A program made the translations under genes and the position numbers. The notes beneath the pieces are model-generated. The model saw nothing but the letters and a program-made list of their open reading frames with translations, was not told the DNA's origin and did not search any database. Below, in pieces: positions 1-55,596 of a DNA stretch of 64,000 nucleotides (positions are counted from its first letter, which is position 1; the number at the start of each line of letters is the position of its first letter). The stretch comes from Shigella phage ESH35: sequence record ON528745; one strand, 5' to 3'.

Positions 1-2
1 AT

Positions 3-650
3 GGTCGACATATAACTAATAACATCAATGATTCGTATGTTGGTAGTGGAAATTATATAGAACGTGTAAAAGTGTCAAATGACCACATATTATCAAAAAC
101 GGTTTTAGAAGTTTTTGATAATTATGATAAAATGGTACAAGCTGAAATATTATATATCATGGCAGGTAAATTGAAATATGGAAAAAACTGTGTTAACCTG
201 TCATACGGGGGTGAAGGAGGAAAGGTTGCAGATGAAACTAGGATAAAATGCAAAAAGCATTCTATAAATTTATGGAAAAATCCTAATCATATACAGCATA
301 TGAAGAAAAAGATGAAAGAGGTCACATCCACGCCGGAAGCTAAATTAAACACTTCAATAAAAACTTCGCAACGATATAAGGACCCAGTTTTTGTTAGAAA
401 AGTTAGTAATATTATTAAAAAGAAACTAAACAATCCTGCAGTAAAAGAAAAGCATATTAATGGAATTAAAGCTGCAAAGCGTTCTCATTTAACTATATGG
501 CAGTATGAAGATGAATTATTCGAGCTTTGGAAAGAAACTAAATATGGATGGAGAAAATTTACAAAGGAAGCTATAAAACACGGATATCCAAATGAACCGT
601 ATCGTAGTATGGTATCAACTTTTCAGAAAAGACATTTAGAAGAATCCTAA
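3..650 (+). CDS. GIY-YIG-family homing endonuclease (Seg-like), 5' end outside window
   Basis: Frame of track ORF 72..650 stays open to the window edge; upstream residues ...NDSYVGSGNYIERVKVSNDH resemble the YIG-Arg-His half of the GIY-YIG motif (cf. I-TevI); basic C-terminal half looks like a DNA-binding domain. Confidence 0.5.
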   Translation, partial: GRHITNNINDSYVGSGNYIERVKVSNDHILSKTVLEVFDNYDKMVQAEILYIMAGKLKYGKNCVNLSYGGEGGKVADETRIKCKKHSINLWKNPNHIQHMKKKMKEVTSTPEAKLNTSIKTSQRYKDPVFVRKVSNIIKKKLNNPAVKEKHINGIKAAKRSHLTIWQYEDELFELWKETKYGWRKFTKEAIKHGYPNEPYRSMVSTFQKRHLEES

Positions 651-720
651 GACAAAAAGGCAGTTCAGAAATAGATTATATGGACTGCCATCAAAAAGAT
701 GACTAGAATTAAACTGGTAA

Positions 721-1035
721 ATGGAGGTAATGATGTTATACTCAAAGGCTCGTGAAATTTATGAAACTAAAATTAAAGAAGCAGTATTTCAGTTCGCAAC
801 GACAATGCGTTGGACAAATGATTGGGAGTATTCAAAAAATCATAAGAAGCCCTTGGTGACAAGAAAGGCTCATATGTTAGTGTTAATAGACCGTGAGCAG
901 ATTAAAGCCCGAGAAGCCCTCCAGAATCATAAAAAGGCTGCCTTTGAATGGTTTATGGATAACACTGCTCCTGAGACTAAGAAAGCAGTGAGCGCTTGGT
1001 TCAGTGGAAAAAATTGTGAAAGAAGTTTCTTTTAG
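721..1035 (+). CDS. hypothetical early protein
   Basis: 104-aa track ORF with GGAGG just upstream of in-frame ATGs at about 730/733; sits in nrdC-distal plastic region. Confidence 0.4.
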   Translation: MEVMMLYSKAREIYETKIKEAVFQFATTMRWTNDWEYSKNHKKPLVTRKAHMLVLIDREQIKAREALQNHKKAAFEWFMDNTAPETKKAVSAWFSGKNCERSFF

Positions 1036-1037
1036 TT

Positions 1038-1095
1038 GTTTACAAGACTGTTCCTCTGTGGTACTATACAACTATCAACTACGGAGGAACAGAAA
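1038..1095 (+). promoter_or_regulatory. early promoter/leader cassette copy A (PeSL-like)
   Basis: GTTTAC -35, TACTAT -10 after TGTGG, leader ACAACTATCAACTACGGAGGAACAGAAA; 9-bp arms CTGTTCCTC/GAGGAACAG flank the -10; coordinates +/-2. Confidence 0.6.
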
Positions 1096-1623
1096 ATGAA
1101 CGCTAAAGATATTTTCAACTTGGTAAATTACAACGATGGTAAATTTAAATCTGAAGCACAAAGCAAGTTCTTTAATGACATCTCAATCGGAGGTGAAATC
1201 ACTGTTGATGGAGGACAAATTTACAAATCCCGTTGGAATTGGATCGTTATTATCGATGAGATTGGTATTGTAGAAATTTACAAGAATACGAATAAAAATC
1301 GTACATTACACTGGTCTCGTGATACTAACGAACAGTACAAAAAGGATAAAGCATCTAAATTATCTCGTGTAACTCAAGAAGATATTGAGTTCATCAAGAA
1401 AGATATTTTGATGTATGATAACTTAATTGCTGAAGAGCAAGCTGTTATTGATAAATTTGACGAGATTAAAGCTTCTCGTGAAATTCCTGATTTTATGAAA
1501 GAATCAGTAAATGAACGATACACTCTCATTTCAGAGCGTATTGAAACTTACAAAAAGCAAAGAGCTGAACGCCAAAATACTCTTCGGAAGTTTGAAGAAC
1601 GGTTAAAGACGGTACTCGCATAA
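1096..1623 (+). CDS. hypothetical protein with helical/basic C-terminal tail
   Basis: Track ORF 1036..1623 begins inside the promoter cassette; start moved to internal ATG (index 21) preceded by GGAGGAACAGAAA. Confidence 0.55.
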   Translation: MNAKDIFNLVNYNDGKFKSEAQSKFFNDISIGGEITVDGGQIYKSRWNWIVIIDEIGIVEIYKNTNKNRTLHWSRDTNEQYKKDKASKLSRVTQEDIEFIKKDILMYDNLIAEEQAVIDKFDEIKASREIPDFMKESVNERYTLISERIETYKKQRAERQNTLRKFEERLKTVLA

Positions 1624-1678
1624 CCGCTTTATACCAAGGATGGTATAATGGTTCTAAGCCCTTTTAATTGAGATTATT

Positions 1679-2086
1679 ATGAAACAGTTGATAATTAAAA
1701 GATTGAATTTATTGATATGTTGTTTATGTGTAGTAGTTGCATATGGTTATTACGCAATTAATGATTATATGCATTATAAAGATTATGATGTTACTGTAGT
1801 TAATACCCTTACAGGAACTCAAGGAAAGGGGTCTAGTTTATCGTTTATTGCCGTATATGAACTCAAAGACGGTTATAGATTTAGCGAATATATTTCACCA
1901 GAGATGTATTCTTCAATAGAAAAAGGTGATAATATTACTGTAAGTTTACGTCCTTTCGACGTAAAACAGACATTGTTTGATAATATTGTTTGGTTCTTTG
2001 GAATGGTATTAGTTCAATCTGTATGCGGTGCTTATATAGTCTTTTCCATCATATTCTGCGTATTTAGTAAAATTGAAATTGAGTGA
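1679..2086 (+). CDS. small membrane protein (two hydrophobic segments)
   Basis: 135-aa ORF; N-terminal LLICCLCVVVAYGYYAI and C-terminal IVWFFGMVLVQSVCGAYIVFSIIFCVF hydrophobic stretches. Confidence 0.5.
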   Translation: MKQLIIKRLNLLICCLCVVVAYGYYAINDYMHYKDYDVTVVNTLTGTQGKGSSLSFIAVYELKDGYRFSEYISPEMYSSIEKGDNITVSLRPFDVKQTLFDNIVWFFGMVLVQSVCGAYIVFSIIFCVFSKIEIE

Positions 2087-2093
2087 GGAAAAT

Positions 2094-2981
2094 ATGTCAG
2101 TAGTAATTAATAATGTCAATGCAGTAATTAAATCTTTAGTTAATAAAAAATTGAATGAATGGACTGTACTTCGTCGTGGAGAGCCAGATAAATTTTTTCA
2201 TAGATTTAACCCAACTTTGGATTTGAATGTTATTGACAGAGATGTTCATGCTGAAATTTTAGATAAATTTAAAGTTGATATTGGGTTTGGATTAGATAAA
2301 CATTTACAGCGAACAAACGGGTCTGGAATGAGTTTATCTAATCGCATCATGAAAGCCCTTAATAAAATTGGAGCATTGTCTCGTATTAATGCAAGTGAAA
2401 TTCTTCGCAATTATAATAAAGGCTATGATCTTTACGGTCGACTAATGCCGAAATTATCATTTGACCAAATGATCGCAGATTTGTGGGAAAATCAACGACG
2501 ATTATTAGCATTAGGCGCTCGATTAGCTAAAGGTCTAGATAAACAAATGATTTTTAAGACCAATAATACAGAAGACCTTAAATGCTTTAAATTTAGCACT
2601 CGTGGAGATGATTATTACGTCAGAGCTCACTCTACAGATTATGCCAATATGGGTCATCATCTCTGTTTAGCTTTTGAAATTTTAAAAGAAGCCGGAACAT
2701 TAGAATATTCATCTGGTGCAAAATGTCCAATTGGTTCAAGTTGTATTTTAATTTATCGCCCGGATGAATCCAGTTCATCTAAATTACCTACAAAACCTGT
2801 ACCAGTTCGTAGTAACGAAAAACATTCTGAACAAATTGATTATTTTAATAAGCAAATTGAAGAGCTGAATATTTCTATTCAGCAATATGATGATGAAATT
2901 TTCAGACTATCTGGACTGAGTAGTAAAGCTAAATCTGAGCGTGAAAAGTTAATTAAAATTGTTGATTTACTTAAATCTTAA
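2094..2981 (+). CDS. hypothetical protein with C-terminal coiled coil (tandem family member 1)
   Basis: Track ORF 2073..2981 trimmed to ATG after GAGGAAAAT; about 295 aa; C-terminal heptad-like helix. Confidence 0.55.
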   Translation: MSVVINNVNAVIKSLVNKKLNEWTVLRRGEPDKFFHRFNPTLDLNVIDRDVHAEILDKFKVDIGFGLDKHLQRTNGSGMSLSNRIMKALNKIGALSRINASEILRNYNKGYDLYGRLMPKLSFDQMIADLWENQRRLLALGARLAKGLDKQMIFKTNNTEDLKCFKFSTRGDDYYVRAHSTDYANMGHHLCLAFEILKEAGTLEYSSGAKCPIGSSCILIYRPDESSSSKLPTKPVPVRSNEKHSEQIDYFNKQIEELNISIQQYDDEIFRLSGLSSKAKSEREKLIKIVDLLKS

Positions 2982-2989
2982 GGAACACT

Positions 2990-4015
2990 ATGAAAACTCG
3001 TTCTCAAATTGAAGATATGGTTCGTAATTGCAGCTATACTCGTGATGTTATGACATTTTTGTGCCAAAATAATTTAGACCCTGATAAAGTTAATCGTGAT
3101 ATTCACTTTAAATATATGAATAGCAGTGAATGGTTACGTCATTTTAGTAAAGCAGGGTATATTACGCAAATGACTGCTCGTGAACAGCTCACCGATTTCT
3201 GTAAAACTATTGATTATAAAAATCCTCTATTTGTTCAAGGTGTTGGTCAGAGTAAGGTCGATTTATCATCTGGATTTTTCAATCCAAATCATTATCGTAT
3301 TGAATGGAGATTTATTGCTCTATTCCGTAAACAATTAAAGCAAATTTTGTCGACGGCTAGTCGATTAAAAGGTTCTGACATTAACTTAAAGAATCTGAAA
3401 TTTGATGGTTATACTCTTCAGATGGAAGTAAGACCATTAAAAGAAAATAATAGAACTGCACGAATTAGCTTTAAACCTAGTACTAAAAATTCTCTTTCAA
3501 TTTGTGAATGTCTTAAATCACAGCTGACAGAAGCATTTAAGTATATGGATGTTGTTGCTGCTGTTCAATCTAAGATTTCGCAGCATTTCGAACGATTTAA
3601 ATTAGATACGACAACATATGAACTTGATATGATCGTTTCATTTAAATATGATTTTTTGAGAAAGGACGAAGTTACACAAGAGAAAAAGCAGGAAGTGCAA
3701 GATAACTTAAATTTAAATTTATCCAATTACTTATCAAACGATCCTAAATTTTGGATGTATAGTTCAGGTAATAAGGATGCATGGAAATTCAATAAAGTGA
3801 ATTTTCTTCCTATTGAAAATCCTAGTCTTAAACCTGTTGAAAAATGGCATGCAGATGCGATTGAGAAGTCTCTTAAGGCAGTAGATGATGAACTCGTTAA
3901 AGCGACCAATGAAGTGCTAGAAGCTGAAAAGGCGTTAGAACAAGCTCAGTCAAGGGTTCAAAATCTGACAAAGCAACGTTCTAAACTGAACAATGCACTA
4001 AATGCACTGAACTAG
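2990..4015 (+). CDS. hypothetical protein with C-terminal coiled coil (family member 2)
   Basis: 341-aa ORF starting MKTR..; ends in about 45-aa predicted coiled coil (EAEKALEQAQSRVQNLTKQRSKLNNALNALN). Confidence 0.6.
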   Translation: MKTRSQIEDMVRNCSYTRDVMTFLCQNNLDPDKVNRDIHFKYMNSSEWLRHFSKAGYITQMTAREQLTDFCKTIDYKNPLFVQGVGQSKVDLSSGFFNPNHYRIEWRFIALFRKQLKQILSTASRLKGSDINLKNLKFDGYTLQMEVRPLKENNRTARISFKPSTKNSLSICECLKSQLTEAFKYMDVVAAVQSKISQHFERFKLDTTTYELDMIVSFKYDFLRKDEVTQEKKQEVQDNLNLNLSNYLSNDPKFWMYSSGNKDAWKFNKVNFLPIENPSLKPVEKWHADAIEKSLKAVDDELVKATNEVLEAEKALEQAQSRVQNLTKQRSKLNNALNALN

Positions 4016-4044
4016 TTTACTTTGCCACAAGGATGTGGTATAAT
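4015..4044 (+). promoter_or_regulatory. early promoter (second repeated type)
   Basis: GTTTACTTTGCCACAAGGATGTGGTATAAT; near-identical copy at about 49027. Confidence 0.55.
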
Positions 4045-4072
4045 GTTCTTACTTTCTACTGAGGAGATTATT

Positions 4073-5074
4073 ATGACTCGTAACGAATATATCAAATCAT
4101 TCAATAGCGTTATTGATGATAAAGCTATACCGATGTTTGGACAAAATAGCGTTCTTTCTATTATCAATCAATGGCTCAATAGTGTTGATGCAGGTATTGT
4201 TTCTTCTGCTAAATTTATTCATGAAATTCGTAAAATTTCTAGCCGTGTAGATAAAGATAATATCAAGAAAACCTTTAAAGAGTCTCGTCTTCTTTCATAT
4301 TTGGTTAATCGGGATATTCTTGGTAATTTTGGGAAAGAAATTAAACGAACCAAAGATGTAGTAGGATATAATTGGTTCGGTGATGTTAATTCTTATCATC
4401 TTAATAATAAAGAAGACCCTGAGAATATTTTTACTCGTCGTTGGATTAGTAATTTCAGACTTTTCAAAGGACAAATTCTAAAATCAGCTTCTAAATTATG
4501 TTATGGCGATTATCGTCAAATTCATCCTTTGGCTTCTGATATGATTATCGTAAAAGAATATGAGCTTGATGAAAATAAAGTATCTATTTTTGTGAATTAT
4601 GGATTTTTTACACCAGAAACTAACCAAAAGAATATTAATAAATTTTTCTCAATTGCTAGCACTATAACTCGTCAATTAGAGACCGCATTACTTTGTATGG
4701 AAACAGTAGAAAATATTCATACTTATCCTTTTAAGAATATATGCGGTTGGGAAGGATATAAAATTATAATTAGCCTTCGTGAAGTGAAATGTGCGTACTC
4801 ACCGACTGATAAAGAAATTTACCAACAAAAATGTGAAGAAATTGTGAATACTCCTAAAGAAGAAACTACCCTTGAGGAACTAATGGAATGTCTTGACGAT
4901 TCACCTGAACCGGTAGAAATTCGTCCAGAAGTTATTGCACTAGAAAAAGCTTATAAAGAAGTTCTAGAAATTTCTAATAAAGCACAGAAAGAATATGAGC
5001 AGGCTAAAAGGATTTGGGAAGAATCTGTTAATCGCTTGGATCGTCTTGAACAAGCTTTACAGTTAATTAAGTAA
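4073..5074 (+). CDS. hypothetical protein with C-terminal coiled coil (family member 3)
   Basis: Track ORF 4022..5074 trimmed to ATG (index 18) after GAGGAGATTATT; early promoter GTTTAC..TATAAT upstream; C-terminal coiled coil. Confidence 0.6.
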   Translation: MTRNEYIKSFNSVIDDKAIPMFGQNSVLSIINQWLNSVDAGIVSSAKFIHEIRKISSRVDKDNIKKTFKESRLLSYLVNRDILGNFGKEIKRTKDVVGYNWFGDVNSYHLNNKEDPENIFTRRWISNFRLFKGQILKSASKLCYGDYRQIHPLASDMIIVKEYELDENKVSIFVNYGFFTPETNQKNINKFFSIASTITRQLETALLCMETVENIHTYPFKNICGWEGYKIIISLREVKCAYSPTDKEIYQQKCEEIVNTPKEETTLEELMECLDDSPEPVEIRPEVIALEKAYKEVLEISNKAQKEYEQAKRIWEESVNRLDRLEQALQLIK

Positions 5075-5126
5075 TTTAAAGCCAAGGATGGCTCGGAGTA
5101 TAAATCATTAACCAAGTGAGAAGAAC

Positions 5127-6056
5127 ATGAAAACTCGTAAACATTATATTGATTATTTTGATAGTCTTATTACTAAACACCGTAATTATCAGATCGGACA
5201 CAGAGCAGTAATCAATAATATTCTTCGTGATTTCCTTCAATATGTTGGCCAGGAAAATCATATCTGTAAAGATACTCAGAACGCTTATTCTTATTCGGTA
5301 GGCAATTTGCTTGAATGGTTTAAACGTTCTCGTATGTTATCTTCTACTGTAGCTCGTGATAACATTGAAAACTTTATGAAGCCGAGCTTCATTAAATCTG
5401 CGACATCTATAACCGATTTGGTTGAATTTACTATTGTTAACGATGTTAAAAAGACCCATTTGGCTGATTGGTTATCTACCATTCCTGAAACTAAATTTGC
5501 TGATAAATTTGCTTGTCAATTCAATGACCAAGTGAATATGCTTTTTAAGCATGCTCGCAAACTATTTACCGCGGGCGATGACCGTACAAATACAGTTCAT
5601 GTTAAGGACTGGGTTATTGCTGATGAAGTAACACACAAGCCAGGTGGTTCATCAGTATTAATTAATATCCAGGTTCCTTATTATTACTCACGTAATCTTG
5701 GCACCATGACAGCTAAAGAAATTAATAAGCACAACAAAACTATTCGTTCGTTGTCTTATAAACTCCGCATGGTGTTAAAAATTATGGACGTAGTGGAAAT
5801 GTATGACGAAACCGAAGATAATGGTTCAATGTTATACAGTTCACGCATTCTAATTAAACTGAAGAACCCTAATACATATAAGACAGTTGTAAAAGAGCCT
5901 AAAGTAGAAAAGGTTGATAATCTGAGTGAAGAACGTGAATATCTCAATGCCCGTTTGATTGAAGTTGAAGCCCAAATTACAGAACACACCAAATTGTTAA
6001 AAGCTCTTAATGCAAAAGCAAATGGTTTACGTAATGCTATTGAGGTATTGAAATGA
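5127..6056 (+). CDS. hypothetical protein with C-terminal coiled coil (family member 4)
   Basis: 309-aa ORF starting MKTRK..; C-terminal helix [42 protein letters not shown]. Confidence 0.6.
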   Translation: MKTRKHYIDYFDSLITKHRNYQIGHRAVINNILRDFLQYVGQENHICKDTQNAYSYSVGNLLEWFKRSRMLSSTVARDNIENFMKPSFIKSATSITDLVEFTIVNDVKKTHLADWLSTIPETKFADKFACQFNDQVNMLFKHARKLFTAGDDRTNTVHVKDWVIADEVTHKPGGSSVLINIQVPYYYSRNLGTMTAKEINKHNKTIRSLSYKLRMVLKIMDVVEMYDETEDNGSMLYSSRILIKLKNPNTYKTVVKEPKVEKVDNLSEEREYLNARLIEVEAQITEHTKLLKALNAKANGLRNAIEVLK

Positions 6057-6442
6057 AAAAGCGTTTATTAGAAGACATTGCAGCTTCAAGTAATTCCAGT
6101 TTAATTAAAATTATTATGGCTGGTGAGGAAGATGATATGGAAATGCGTGGAAAGATTCACGGCTGCGACGATTTAGATTTTAAACCTCCAGCATGGGATG
6201 CTATTATGGCTATGGTTGAACGACGTGAAAGAGCTTCTAAAAACGTTCCTAATTGCCCTGAATGCGGTACTGAACAAGTTCAATTGATTAACTGGCGTAA
6301 ACCAGAGCTTGAATATAAATGCCGTCAATGTAAACATAAATTCAGTAAGCATGCTCCGGAAATGGTTAAATTGCCTGACTCTACTGAGTTCTTTAAAGAA
6401 CTTGTGAGTGTTCAACCAATGCCTAATAATATTTTGGATTAA
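6053..6442 (+). CDS. zinc-ribbon protein
   Basis: 129 aa; CPECG...CRQCKHKF CxxC-x18-CxxC motif; start overlaps upstream stop (ATGA). Confidence 0.5.
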
Positions 6443-6444
6443 AA

Positions 6445-6687
6445 ATGACCAAGCGTAAAGAATATATGGAGGCTGCTGAAAAGGCAGTCCGTGAATTAGC
6501 AATAGCTTATTATAATGAACATGGTAAATTTCCTGATAGATACAGCGTGCTTAAATCTGCTTTAACTCGTTCATATAAAAATATGCTATCAGAAGTAAGT
6601 GATATTATATACAAACATAAAGAACAAACGGGCCAAAGTCTTGATTACGACGAGACTTTTAAACAAGTACTAGGAATTAAGGAATAA
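6445..6687 (+). CDS. hypothetical early protein
   Basis: 80-aa ORF tightly packed between neighbours. Confidence 0.45.
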
Positions 6688-6688
6688 T

Positions 6689-6952
6689 ATGTTTAAAGTA
6701 TATGGTTATGATAGCAACATTCATAAATGTGTGTATTGCGATAATGCAAAACGTCTTTTGACCGTGAAGAAACAGCCGTTTGAATTTATCAACATTATGC
6801 CGGAAAAAGGTGTTTTTGATGATGAGAAAATCGCTGAGCTTCTGACTAAACTAGGTCGTGATACTCAAATCGGCTTGACAATGCCCCAGGTATTTGCTCC
6901 TGATGGAAGTCATATTGGTGGATTTGACCAACTGCGAGAATATTTTAAATGA
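6689..6952 (+). CDS. nrdC: thioredoxin/glutaredoxin NrdC
   Basis: 87 aa, CVYC redox motif, sequence recognised as T4 thioredoxin. Confidence 0.85.
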   Translation: MFKVYGYDSNIHKCVYCDNAKRLLTVKKQPFEFINIMPEKGVFDDEKIAELLTKLGRDTQIGLTMPQVFAPDGSHIGGFDQLREYFK

Positions 6953-7164
6953 TGCTCGAAGGAACTGACTATATTCATGATTACCGCGGAAGCGCGGTAT
7001 ATGTAGGTGATGAAGTTGCAGTTTATTATGGGTATGGAACTTTGATGACAGCCAAGGTTATTCAAATTAAAAATAATCGTGCTAAACTTGAAGTTTATTA
7101 TTCTAATGGTGAAAAGTCTATTTCTAAGTGGAAATACGGCGATTGTATGGTCAAACTGGGGTAA
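6949..7164 (+). CDS. hypothetical protein (49.3 position)
   Basis: 71-aa ORF overlapping nrdC stop by 4 nt. Confidence 0.45.
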   Translation: MMLEGTDYIHDYRGSAVYVGDEVAVYYGYGTLMTAKVIQIKNNRAKLEVYYSNGEKSISKWKYGDCMVKLG

Positions 7165-17953: not shown

Positions 17954-19638
17954 AGAATTTTAAACTAAACCGAGTTAGGTATCAAAATATAATGTCAGTA
18001 GGTGGAAATCCTATTGACATTCAATTAGATAAGGTTCAAAAAACTCTTATTACTGGACGAAATGGCGGTGGTAAGTCTACTATGTTAGAAGCCATCACAT
18101 TTGGGCTTTTTGGCAAGCCATTTCGTGATGTAAAGAAAGGTCAATTAATAAACAGCACAAATAAGAAAGAACTTTTAGTTGAACTGTGGATGGAATATGA
18201 TGAGAAAAAGTACTATATCAAAAGAGGACAAAAACCAAACGTTTTCGAAATCACCGTTAACGGTACACGTCTTAATGAATCTGCCAGCAGTAAAGATTTC
18301 CAAGCAGAATTTGAACAGCTTATCGGAATGTCATATGCCAGTTTCAAGCAGATTGTTGTCCTTGGTACAGCAGGGTATACCCCTTTCATGGGTTTGTCGA
18401 CCCCTGCACGAAGAAAGCTTGTGGAAGACCTGCTTGAGGTAGGAACATTAGCTGAAATGGATAAGCTTAATAAAGCACTAATACGTGAATTAAATTCACA
18501 AAACCAAGTGCTTGATGTTAAAAAAGATAGTATTATCCAACAAATTAAAATATATAATGATAACGTTGAACGCCAGAAAAAATTAACTGGTGACAACCTT
18601 ACTCGTCTTCAAAATATGTATGATGATTTGGCAAAAGAAGCTAGAACGCTAAAATCAGAAATAGAAGAAGCTAATGAAAGATTAGTTAATATTGTTTTAG
18701 ACGAAGACCCGACTGATGCATTTAATAAAATCGGTCAAGAAGCAGTTTTAATTAAATCAAAAATTGACTCGTATAATAAAGTCATTAATATGTATCATGA
18801 AGGTGGATTATGTCCAACCTGCTTGTCACAATTAAGTTCCGGTGATAAAGTTGTTTCTAAAATTAAAGATAAAGTTTCTGAATGTACGCATTCGTTTGAA
18901 CAGCTTTCAACACATCGTGATAATTTAAAAGTTCTTGTTGATGAATACCGAGATAATATTAAAACCCAGCAGTCGTTGGCAAATGATATTCGCAATAAAA
19001 AGCAATCTCTAATCACGACGGTAGATAAAGCTAAAAAAGTTAAAGCAGCTATAGAAAAAGCATCTTCTGAGTTTATTGACCATGCTGATGAAATAGCATT
19101 GCTTCAAGAAGAACTTGATAAAATTGTTAAGACAAAAACTAATTTAGTAATGGAAAAATACCACCGAGGAATTTTGACTGATATGCTCAAAGATTCTGGT
19201 ATTAAAGGTGCTATTATTAAAAAGTACATTCCATTATTTAATAAGCAGATTAACCATTATCTTAAAATAATGGAAGCGGATTATGTGTTTACATTAGATG
19301 AAGAATTTAATGAGACAATTAAATCCCGTGGTCGTGAAGATTTTAGTTATGCTTCATTCAGTCAAGGTGAAAAAGCGCGAATTGATATTGCTCTTTTATT
19401 TACTTGGCGTGATATTGCTGAAAAAGTTTCAGGTGTTAAAATAAGTTGTTTATTTCTTGATGAAGTGTATGACGGTGCATTTGATGCTGAAGGCATTAAA
19501 AATGTAGCTAAAATTTTAGATGGTTTGAAGGATACCAACTTCTTCATAATTTCGCATAAAGACCATGATCCGCAGGATTATGGACAGCATATTAAAATGG
19601 AAAAAGTTGGTAGATTTAGTGTTGCCACTATTAATTAA
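17950..19638 (+). CDS. 46: recombination ATPase subunit gp46 (Rad50/SbcC-like)
   Basis: 562 aa; Walker A GRNGGGKST, central coiled coil with CPTC zinc hook, C-terminal signature/Walker B. Confidence 0.9.
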   Translation: MKNFKLNRVRYQNIMSVGGNPIDIQLDKVQKTLITGRNGGGKSTMLEAITFGLFGKPFRDVKKGQLINSTNKKELLVELWMEYDEKKYYIKRGQKPNVFEITVNGTRLNESASSKDFQAEFEQLIGMSYASFKQIVVLGTAGYTPFMGLSTPARRKLVEDLLEVGTLAEMDKLNKALIRELNSQNQVLDVKKDSIIQQIKIYNDNVERQKKLTGDNLTRLQNMYDDLAKEARTLKSEIEEANERLVNIVLDEDPTDAFNKIGQEAVLIKSKIDSYNKVINMYHEGGLCPTCLSQLSSGDKVVSKIKDKVSECTHSFEQLSTHRDNLKVLVDEYRDNIKTQQSLANDIRNKKQSLITTVDKAKKVKAAIEKASSEFIDHADEIALLQEELDKIVKTKTNLVMEKYHRGILTDMLKDSGIKGAIIKKYIPLFNKQINHYLKIMEADYVFTLDEEFNETIKSRGREDFSYASFSQGEKARIDIALLFTWRDIAEKVSGVKISCLFLDEVYDGAFDAEGIKNVAKILDGLKDTNFFIISHKDHDPQDYGQHIKMEKVGRFSVATIN

Positions 19639-20348
19639 TGTTTGTGCTTACAGTTATCATTATGCCACCTTGATAAATTTCCGAAAGTGGTAACTTTACC
19701 ACAATGGACGCAAGTACCAGTCTTTTCAGTTTTCTTGCGTCCATTTGGATTTTTCTTGCAGAAATTTCTATGCGCTGCGATAACGCATTTCTTGCCTATC
19801 ATTCCGCAGAATTCGCAGGATGTTTCTTCAAGAATGATTGCTTTAAGCCCGTTTGAGATATTATTTCTGTGTTCTTTAGACATCGGTGGTCTAACTTTAG
19901 GATTAGGGTGATTCGGGCAGTTATCAAAATGCCATCGATTCATATTCCCGCTTAATCCGGACTTACCGCAATGTGGACAAGTTAGTCTTGCTTTATTAGC
20001 TACTGCATCAGACATTTTCTTTCGTGTCTCCTGGGAGAATTCTTTATTCTTTTCTATTTCCCAGAGTTTACGACGAATCCAACCGAAAGTTTTATTGTTA
20101 CGTTTAGCGTATTTCGTGGAAACTGTCATCATGTTAGCAGCATAGACTAATTTTGGTTCAGAAGGATAAATTTTTACTAAAAGTTGATGAGCTACATAGT
20201 GCTCTTCCGGTGTTAAATCTACTAAGTTTGAAGCATCATCGCTGCCATTTAAACAGCGTGGTATAATGTGATGAGATTCAGTATAGCAATCAAGTTTTCG
20301 AGATTTAGCATTAGAGATTAACTTTTCATAAATTAGTTTATAATTCAT
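19635..20348 (-). CDS. freestanding HNH homing endonuclease with three C-terminal zinc-finger repeats
   Basis: 237 aa; HNH motif ESHHIIPRCLNGSDDASNLVDLTPEEHYVAH; three CxxCG..RWH..NC modules; opposite strand to all neighbours; TATAAATA late-promoter match about 34 nt upstream. Confidence 0.8.
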   Translation of the reverse strand: MNYKLIYEKLISNAKSRKLDCYTESHHIIPRCLNGSDDASNLVDLTPEEHYVAHQLLVKIYPSEPKLVYAANMMTVSTKYAKRNNKTFGWIRRKLWEIEKNKEFSQETRKKMSDAVANKARLTCPHCGKSGLSGNMNRWHFDNCPNHPNPKVRPPMSKEHRNNISNGLKAIILEETSCEFCGMIGKKCVIAAHRNFCKKNPNGRKKTEKTGTCVHCGKVTTFGNLSRWHNDNCKHKH

Positions 20349-20381
20349 AACATATCCTTTTGATACAGCGAGTGATAAACA

Positions 20382-20389
20382 TATTTATA
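20382..20389 (-). promoter_or_regulatory. late promoter (TATAAATA) for the HNH endonuclease gene
   Basis: + strand TATTTATA, i.e. TATAAATA on - strand, about 34 nt upstream of the HNH ATG. Confidence 0.55.
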
Positions 20390-54267: not shown

Positions 54268-55596
54268 ATGCAACTGAATAATCGCGATTTAAAAAGTATC
54301 ATTGATAATGAAGCACTGGCTTATGCTATGTACACGGTTGAAAATCGTGCTATCCCAAATATGATTGACGGATTTAAGCCAGTTCAACGATTTGTTATTG
54401 CTCGAGCTCTTGATTTGGCACGAGGAAATAAAGATAAGTTTCACAAACTCGCTTCTATCGCAGGTGGTGTAGCGGACCTTGGATATCATCATGGCGAAAA
54501 CTCTGCACAAGACGCAGGTGCTTTGATGGCTAACACTTGGAATAATAACTTTCCTCTGTTAGATGGTCAAGGAAACTTCGGTTCTCGTACCGTTCAAAAA
54601 GCAGCGGCAAGTCGTTATATTTTTGCTCGTGTAAGTAAAAATTTCTATAACGTATATAAAGATACTGAGTATGCTCCGGTACATCAAGATAAAGAACACA
54701 TTCCGCCTGCTTTCTATTTGCCTATTATTCCTACTGTTCTTCTTAATGGCGTTTCCGGTATTGCAACTGGTTATGCAACTTACATTCTTCCTCATAGTGT
54801 TTCTTCTGTCAAGAAAGCTGTACTGCAAGCTCTTCAAGGAAAGAAAGTAACTAAACCGAAGGTAGAATTCCCAGAATTTCGTGGTGAAGTTGTTGAAATT
54901 GATGGGCAGTATGAAATTCGTGGAACATATAAGTTTACTTCACGAACTCAAATGCATATCACTGAGATTCCATATAAGTATGATCGTGAAACTTATGTGA
55001 GTAAAATCTTAGACCCACTTGAAGATAAAGGCTTCATTACATGGGATGATGCTTGCGGTGAGCACGGTTTTGGATTCAAAGTTAAATTCCGCAAAGAATA
55101 TTCTTTGAGCGATAATGAAGAAGAACGCCATGCAAAAATTATGAAAGACTTCGGGTTGATTGAGCGTCGTTCTCAGAATATTACGGTTATTAATGAGAAA
55201 GGAAAACTACAAGTTTACGATAACGTAGTTGATTTAATTAAAGATTTCGTTGAAGTTCGTAAAACTTATGTCCAAAAACGAATTGATAACAAAATTAAAG
55301 AAACTGAGTCAGCTTTTCGTTTAGCCTTTGCCAAGGCACATTTCATTAAGAAAGTAATTTCAGGTGAAATTATTGTACAGGGTAAAACTCGTAAAGAACT
55401 GACCGAAGAACTTTCGAAAATCGATATGTATTCTTCTTATGTTGATAAATTAGTTGGAATGAATATTTTTCATATGACTTCCGACGAAGCAAAGAAACTT
55501 GCTGAAGAAGCTAAAGCTAAAAAAGAAGAAAACGAATATTGGAAAACTACTGATGTAGTTACTGAATACACCAAAGATTTAGAGGAAATCAAATGA
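54268..55596 (+). CDS. 52: DNA topoisomerase II medium subunit gp52 (GyrA-like)
   Basis: 442 aa; IPNMIDGFKPVQRFVIARAL.. recognised as T4 gp52. Confidence 0.93.
   Translation: MQLNNRDLKSIIDNEALAYAMYTVENRAIPNMIDGFKPVQRFVIARALDLARGNKDKFHKLASIAGGVADLGYHHGENSAQDAGALMANTWNNNFPLLDGQGNFGSRTVQKAAASRYIFARVSKNFYNVYKDTEYAPVHQDKEHIPPAFYLPIIPTVLLNGVSGIATGYATYILPHSVSSVKKAVLQALQGKKVTKPKVEFPEFRGEVVEIDGQYEIRGTYKFTSRTQMHITEIPYKYDRETYVSKILDPLEDKGFITWDDACGEHGFGFKVKFRKEYSLSDNEEERHAKIMKDFGLIERRSQNITVINEKGKLQVYDNVVDLIKDFVEVRKTYVQKRIDNKIKETESAFRLAFAKAHFIKKVISGEIIVQGKTRKELTEELSKIDMYSSYVDKLVGMNIFHMTSDEAKKLAEEAKAKKEENEYWKTTDVVTEYTKDLEEIK

Follow-up and report, generated by a model that had tools for sequence, protein, structure and literature searches.

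The left edge of the DNA analysed here, a stretch of 64,000 nucleotides from Shigella phage ESH35 (sequence record ON528745; hereafter the window), cuts into an open reading frame that raises two related questions: what does the frame encode, and does it mark a site that mobile genes of different families have invaded independently? On the forward strand, window positions 3–650 hold 215 sense codons without a stop, followed by a TAA at 648–650, and the translation begins GRHITNNINDSYVGSGNYIERVKVSNDH..., as quoted in the initial annotation. The other forward frames carry many stops across the same interval, and at the roughly 7% stops per codon expected from base composition, the calculated chance of an open run of 216 codons is about 1e-7. 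The initial annotation, made from the letters of the window, had proposed that the gene was cut by the window edge. Indeed, the frame is open from position 3 and 70 nt of the gene, or 23 codons and part of residue 24, are missing to the left; the window holds residues 25–239 of a 239-residue protein, plus the TAA stop.

Window positions 1–720 match phage RB32 (DQ904452) base for base, and a megablast search with window 1–3000 matched about 700 T-even (Tequatrovirus) genomes. The RB32 gene, RB32ORF093c, is 720 bp long, lies between nrdC.10 and nrdC.9, and has been annotated since 2006 as a [quoted passage not shown]. It and its orthologues are the same gene at the same site as the one described here, the sole difference being the first 70 nt, which fall outside the window. 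At the nucleotide level, the gene is 100% identical to its counterparts in RB32 and RB33 and at least 97.5% identical across 66 records. The gene also occurs at this position in T6 (AXN58132), and there are further orthologues in RB14, RB51, RB3 and AR1, the last labelled "segE". With the open frame, the 100% nucleotide identity to RB32ORF093c and a match to the protein family PHROG_314 all pointing the same way, window 3–650 (forward strand) reads as the 3′ 90% of a seg-like coding sequence. We put at roughly 85% the probability that these bases belong to a homing endonuclease gene (HEG) of T-even phages, free-standing and of the Seg type within the GIY-YIG family, namely RB32ORF093c, of which the window edge leaves the 3′ part; it is an already known, ordinary mobile nuclease gene.

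The start of the gene deserves comment, as a mechanical list of reading frames places it at the GTG at position 72, which is merely the first start codon inside the window. Taken at face value, that listing would make 72–650 a complete, separate, non-nuclease gene with a frame that happens to stay open upstream by chance. Such a reading has next to no chance of being right and is refuted on three counts: window 3–71 encodes invariant family residues (G25, H27, D34, Y36 and the GSG motif), the alignment of the family profile starts at the first residue in the window, and an upstream ATG is annotated in all relatives. This ATG precedes window position 1 by 70 nt and overlaps the nrdC.10 stop codon. 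The N-terminal 24 residues of the ESH35 protein lie outside the window, and their motifs were read from the identical RB32 gene, where the sequence is MKKYFTIYKTEILNLKTGIKKYYY, followed by the G of window codon 3–5. To the left of the window, ESH35 itself is expected to read ...GAAATCGCTGAAACGGTATTATTAAAATGAAAAAATATTTTACTATCTATAAAACT..., with the nrdC.10 tail in its recoded form, then the ATGA overlap, then FTIY...YYYG.

Assignment to the GIY-YIG family, which the initial annotation had proposed, was sustained by sequence, profile and fold evidence, by a less direct route than the profile search it had called for. Neither the fragment nor the full-length protein matched any Pfam or NCBIfam model even at E<=10, and the gathering scores of PF01541 and PF19835 were not reached. 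The missing match is a failure of profile sensitivity and not a sign of another family, and without one the assignment has to be made from transitive and structural evidence. Several other direct approaches were equally silent: phmmer against PDB sequences and Foldseek against the PDB gave no match for the seg-like protein, a word-indexed homologue search returned its own cluster only, and a single-sequence AlphaFold model was unusable (pLDDT 41).

Other lines of evidence make the assignment secure. The protein matches PHROG_314, "homing endonuclease", at E 1.6e-26, and in a tblastn search of 2.3 Gb of phage DNA it found SegH (31% identity over residues 1–151, E 2e-6) and T4 SegB (27% identity, E 3e-5), with pairwise E values of 2e-13 and 1e-12, respectively. 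SegB itself scores above the Pfam GIY-YIG gathering threshold. An exhaustive HMMER scan gathered 1438 relatives; among 62 that were aligned, 25 match PF19835 (SegE_GIY-YIG), 18 match PF01541 (GIY-YIG) and 20 match NUMOD3. [quoted passage not shown] The structural neighbours of the protein in BFVD are Seg-like HEGs, and the GIY-YIG alpha/beta fold is present. An HNH motif, the mark of the Mob-type enzymes, had no Pfam match in the seg-like protein.

Another line of evidence comes from individual residues. In an alignment of 98 relatives, 13 positions are invariant or nearly so (Y8, Y23, G25, H27, D34, Y36, G38, S39, G40, E72, N89, G93 and G94), and all 13 are kept here. Extending the sequence leftwards in the identical relatives recovers both halves of the signature that the initial annotation had asked for. 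Read from RB32, whose gene is 100% identical, the GIY motif is FTIY; it lies 50 nt beyond the left edge of the window and contains Tyr8 (Tyr in 98/98 relatives; Tyr6 in I-TevI). The YIG motif is YYYG, spanning Tyr23 (97/98) to Gly25 (98/98; Tyr17–Gly19 in I-TevI), and it straddles the window edge with Gly25 alone inside, at codon 3–5. The initial annotation had instead taken SYVGSG for the YIG half, which it is not: these residues belong to the insert D-x-Y-x-G-S-G that the Seg subfamily carries after YIG-x-H. In full, the insert reads H-x6-D-x-Y-x-G-S-G, and H27, D34, Y36, G38, S39 and G40, each conserved in 94–98 of the 98 relatives, occupy window 9–50. GIY and YIG are 14 residues apart here, compared with the canonical 10–11, a spacing 4 residues longer than the canonical one and that of most relatives.

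The part of the catalytic domain that lies in the window, residues 25–97, occupies positions 3–221 on the forward strand. Further sites within it include Glu72 (144–146) and Asn89 (195–197), both found in 98/98 relatives, the G93–G94 pair, and a candidate catalytic arginine, Arg45 (63–65). This last residue aligns with the R of SegB (K-R-A) and SegH (R-A); its column holds Arg in 37/98 relatives, with K/R in the adjoining column, and its equivalence to I-TevI R27 is tentative. The K-Y-G motif of the family is V-S-N in this protein.

Beyond the N-terminal GIY-YIG nuclease domain, the protein continues with about five NUMOD3-like helices and ends in a three-helix DNA-binding module. Residues 101–186 (window 231–488, forward strand) form an extended, NUMOD3-like DNA-binding linker, in which an AF2 model predicts five helices of about 15–17 residues each (101–116, 118–132, 135–149, 152–166 and 169–186), carrying a degenerate repeat of the form "(N/T/D)P-x3-K-x6-K". 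This protein does not itself match the Pfam NUMOD3 model that recognises the 20 relatives counted above, and the stretch aligns to the NUMOD-like repeats of MobD. The C-terminal module, about 50 aa long (residues 187–238; window 489–644, forward strand), is marked by the motif W-x-Y-x-D-E-L-F-x-L-W ... G-Y-P-x3-Y-x3-V-x2-F and is tandemly repeated two to four times in the metagenomic relatives P0006, P0009, P0016 and P0088. A Pfam search through relatives that have this module alone in common found no matching model. The module is probably a helix-turn-helix DNA-binding domain, one that the HNH enzyme MobD also has. The order of the domains follows the plan of I-TevI and SegB, a nuclease domain joined to an extended DNA-binding region (PMC2330249), here without a zinc finger.

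The closest characterised systems are SegH (of RB3, T6 and U5) and T4 SegB. Both combine a GIY-YIG domain bearing the H-x6-D-x-Y-x-GSG insert and the conserved Glu and Asn with a NUMOD3-type helical region, and both genes are free-standing and intergenic, overlap the end of the upstream gene and occur sporadically, as seen here. There are also differences. Identity to this protein is only 27–31%, the GIY-YIG hairpin is 4 residues longer here, and this protein ends in a MobD-type module, whereas SegH has one of the I-TevI_DNA-bd type. The sites also differ, segH lying at nrdD/nrdG and segB in the tRNA cluster, compared with nrdC.10/nrdC.9 for this gene. SegH and SegB are characterised homing endonucleases, while the present gene is known from sequence. 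I-TevI, encoded by the T4 td intron (structure 1LN0), shares the positions of the catalytic Tyr, the Tyr-Gly, the Glu and the Asn, and likewise joins a nuclease domain to an extended DNA-binding region with a helix-turn-helix at its end (PMC2330249). The present protein is only 18% identical to I-TevI, is not intron-encoded, lacks the zinc finger and carries the Seg-specific 13-residue insert after YIG.

MobD offers a different kind of likeness. Its C-terminal DNA-binding region is homologous to that of the seg-like protein (residues 133–231 here and 131–246 in MobD, E 6e-6; MobD at L009 749–1525), and the motifs P-x-VKEKH and W-x-D-x-L-x2-LW...GYP...Y...F occur in both, whereas the catalytic domains belong to different families, HNH in MobD and GIY-YIG here. 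The HNH match of MobD is itself weak (PF01844, E 0.0029, below the gathering score). A C-terminal module common to a Seg-like protein and MobD makes a small case of domain shuffling between endonuclease families.

Does the gene then occupy the site of T4 mobD, as the initial annotation proposed, and so show that two endonuclease families invaded one target independently? Some observations speak for the idea. Both genes lie within the variable early region between nrdC and mobD, the C-terminal module occurs in both proteins, and RB32, T6 and G157lw have the seg-like gene without mobD, while T4 shows the reverse. The maps nevertheless tell against it. T4 mobD lies between nrdC.11 and mobD.1 (PMC2988022 Table 1), and in T4 nrdC.10 adjoins nrdC.9 across a 94-nt spacer; the two insertion points are thus about 2.1 kb and two genes apart, with mobD upstream. 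In RB32, T6 and G157lw the mobD position is filled by an unrelated ORF, RB32ORF096c, and Salmonella phage pSe_SNUABM_01 carries both the seg-like gene and mobD (99% identical to T4 MobD), so the two can co-occur. The maps of RB32, T4 and pSe_SNUABM_01 thus refute the proposal of a single hotspot, which we regard as very improbable, and leave two separate insertion sites within one variable region.

At its own site, the gene is a discrete cassette of 734 bp that is present or absent among near-identical genomes. Its ATG shares bases with the nrdC.10 stop codon (ATGA), and 70 nt separate its end from nrdC.9. From window 647 on (CTAAGACAAAAAGG...), the sequence is again homologous to that of HEG-less phages (T4, T2, PST, Sf21 and others), and the element is therefore a 734-bp replacement running from window −87 to 646. 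Window 647–720 (forward strand) comprises the right junction and the intergenic DNA upstream of nrdC.9 that is shared with the HEG-less phages. The segment stands in place of 39 nt of T4, and its boundaries are exact. The site is occupied in the 66 records of at least 97.5% identity noted above and contiguous and empty in 435 records; the gene is free-standing, sits between conserved genes and is missing from collinear close relatives. Among the fixed differences between genomes with and without the HEG, none fell in the 550-nt flanks on either side outside the junction, where a co-conversion haplotype was sought among 4+6 genomes. The 39-nt junction of T4 was also considered as a scar of the 3′ end of the HEG and was rejected, its local alignment score being reached by 750/2000 shuffles.

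The same insertion point is used in a second genus. In Klebsiella Jiaodavirus (vB_Kpn_AM_K5 and Nispero), a homologue of 238 aa, 46% identical and of the same architecture, immediately follows the nrdC.10 orthologue (74% aa identity), and its distribution is as sporadic as in Tequatrovirus, with 7 records occupied and about 130 empty. The Jiaodavirus gene differs in starting 8 nt after the nrdC.10 stop, without overlap, and in having other downstream neighbours.

Of all the signs of mobility, the most telling is found in the DNA immediately before the gene. In the final 24 nt of nrdC.10 (window about −87 to −64; L001 3911–3934), genomes with and without the HEG differ at 11–12 positions in a comparison of 4 carriers with 5 empty-site genomes other than T4, whereas the preceding 744 nt of nrdC.10 hold 13–17 differences (about 2%) and every other 24-nt window holds at most 4. 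The peptide tail is kept despite the recoding, ETVLLK* in carriers and EVTLLK* in the others. The HEG-carrying allele of Jiaodavirus is altered in the same CTGAAATAA stretch. At this candidate recognition site, then, the carrier allele is unlike the recipient allele, which is the pattern expected of self-immunity, if the site is indeed the target. From the pattern of substitutions, the recoded tail is probably the target and immunity site of the endonuclease, and its recognition site would be the nrdC.10 stop-codon region of empty genomes. This amounts to a concrete and testable prediction of a homing site for an uncharacterised Seg enzyme.

Some details of the flanking genes can be added. EVTLLK* is the common HEG-less tail, found in T2, PST, Sf21, slur14 and sb4, and the T4 nrdC.10 tail, TGYSSEINS* (L003, ~54343–54375), is a T4-specific indel or frameshift variant of it; T4 is therefore not a typical empty site. 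The nrdC.10 product (L001 2966–3934) has sub-threshold Pfam matches to AAA/STAND NTPases (AAA_14, E 5.8e-5), and the probable target gene of the HEG would thus be one for a conserved P-loop NTPase-like protein. On the other side, nrdC.9 (window 721–1035) encodes a DUF7203 protein (E 2.8e-15). The nrdC.x genes are widely mislabelled "thioredoxin" in public records.

As for expression, sigma-70-like promoter sites were not above chance (14 vs 9.7 ± 2.9), no late promoter (TATAAATA) was present in 11 kb, and no Shine-Dalgarno sequence was found for the gene. By analogy with SegA, SegB, SegE, SegF, SegG, SegH and I-TevI, the gene is probably co-transcribed with nrdC.10, translationally coupled to it and expressed at a low level. 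The same enzymes suggest how it could spread. During a mixed infection, the enzyme would bind to an allele without the HEG and cut it at the 3′ end of nrdC.10 or close by; the candidate site is GCTGAGGTTACTCTTCTGAAATAA together with the 15-nt spacer that follows it. Recombinational repair of the break would then give the recipient a copy of the HEG with its flanks. The carrier allele, in this proposal, would be protected by the recoding of the last 24 nt of its nrdC.10 and by the replacement of the spacer. From the behaviour of these relatives, we infer cleavage and homing by the gene product.

How far can this be pressed? The fullest version holds that the gene encodes an active Seg endonuclease of new specificity, directed at the nrdC.10 stop region (around GCTGAGGTTACTCTTCTGAAATAA) in both Tequatrovirus and Klebsiella Jiaodavirus by way of an undescribed DNA-binding module (W-x-Y-x-ELF-x-LW...GYP...Y...F; about 50 aa), which the GIY-YIG (Seg) and HNH (MobD) enzymes have exchanged with each other. 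It may be so, at somewhat less than even odds. An alternative to the main reading is a decaying or domesticated relic, with an intact reading frame that no longer cuts or homes, or that serves the phage in another role, such as the competitor exclusion or break-induced amplification reported for T6 SegB (PMC13096335). That precedent for a host-beneficial role counts in its favour, as do the lost K-Y-G motif and ambiguous Arg, the failure of standard GIY-YIG profiles to recognise the protein and the want of expression signals of its own. Decay of the kind typical of the degenerative phase of the HEG cycle can in fact be seen in individual copies. G157lw, the closest relative over 3 kb, has an A6 run in the catalytic domain (window 182–187, forward strand; intact here) shortened to A5, which splits the gene into two annotated fragments, and the copies of AR1 and RB3 are split or truncated. 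Against this, the frame is full-length in most of the 66 records at no less than 97.5% identity, and the 13/13 invariant or near-invariant family residues are retained. Moreover, the recoded nrdC.10 tail, read as the result of selection against self-cleavage, would imply activity at least in the recent past. We regard a relic as unlikely.

Public annotation of the gene is inconsistent: it is an "HNH homing endonuclease" in one T6 record (AP018814.1), "segE" in AR1 and RB68, and elsewhere a "hypothetical protein". Automated pipelines arrive at "hypothetical protein" or "HNH" because the standard GIY-YIG profiles miss the protein. The name segE in the AR1 and RB68 records is a similarity label only; the best T4 match of the protein is segB, and segE proper, in T4, is found between hoc.1 and uvsW (PMC2330249). 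A 2010 review by Petrov et al. credits RB32 with two GIY-YIG HEGs of the seg-like kind (PMC2993671 Table 5); in the library of papers searched, neither RB32ORF093c nor nrdC.9 is named and no experiments on the gene are described. Beyond correct annotation, its significance is small.

The window is mosaic. Window 1–750 is identical to RB32, and from 751 on the sequence diverges by 1–4% (window 751–7000). Around window 5250–6500 and beyond 6750 (nrdC.4–nrdC.3), it differs strongly from RB32 and T4 and matches G157lw, while at 19–21 kb RB51/RB68 matches best. On the reverse strand, window 19638–20384 holds a second free-standing HEG, which is presumably the one that the initial annotation counted as its first. 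It is a MobD-like HNH ORF, equivalent to RB32ORF054w, with a phmmer match to MobD at E 1.6e-20 and a weak Pfam HNH match. This second gene lies between gene 46 and rpbA, both of which are on the other strand, and is present in only 59/598 matching phage records.
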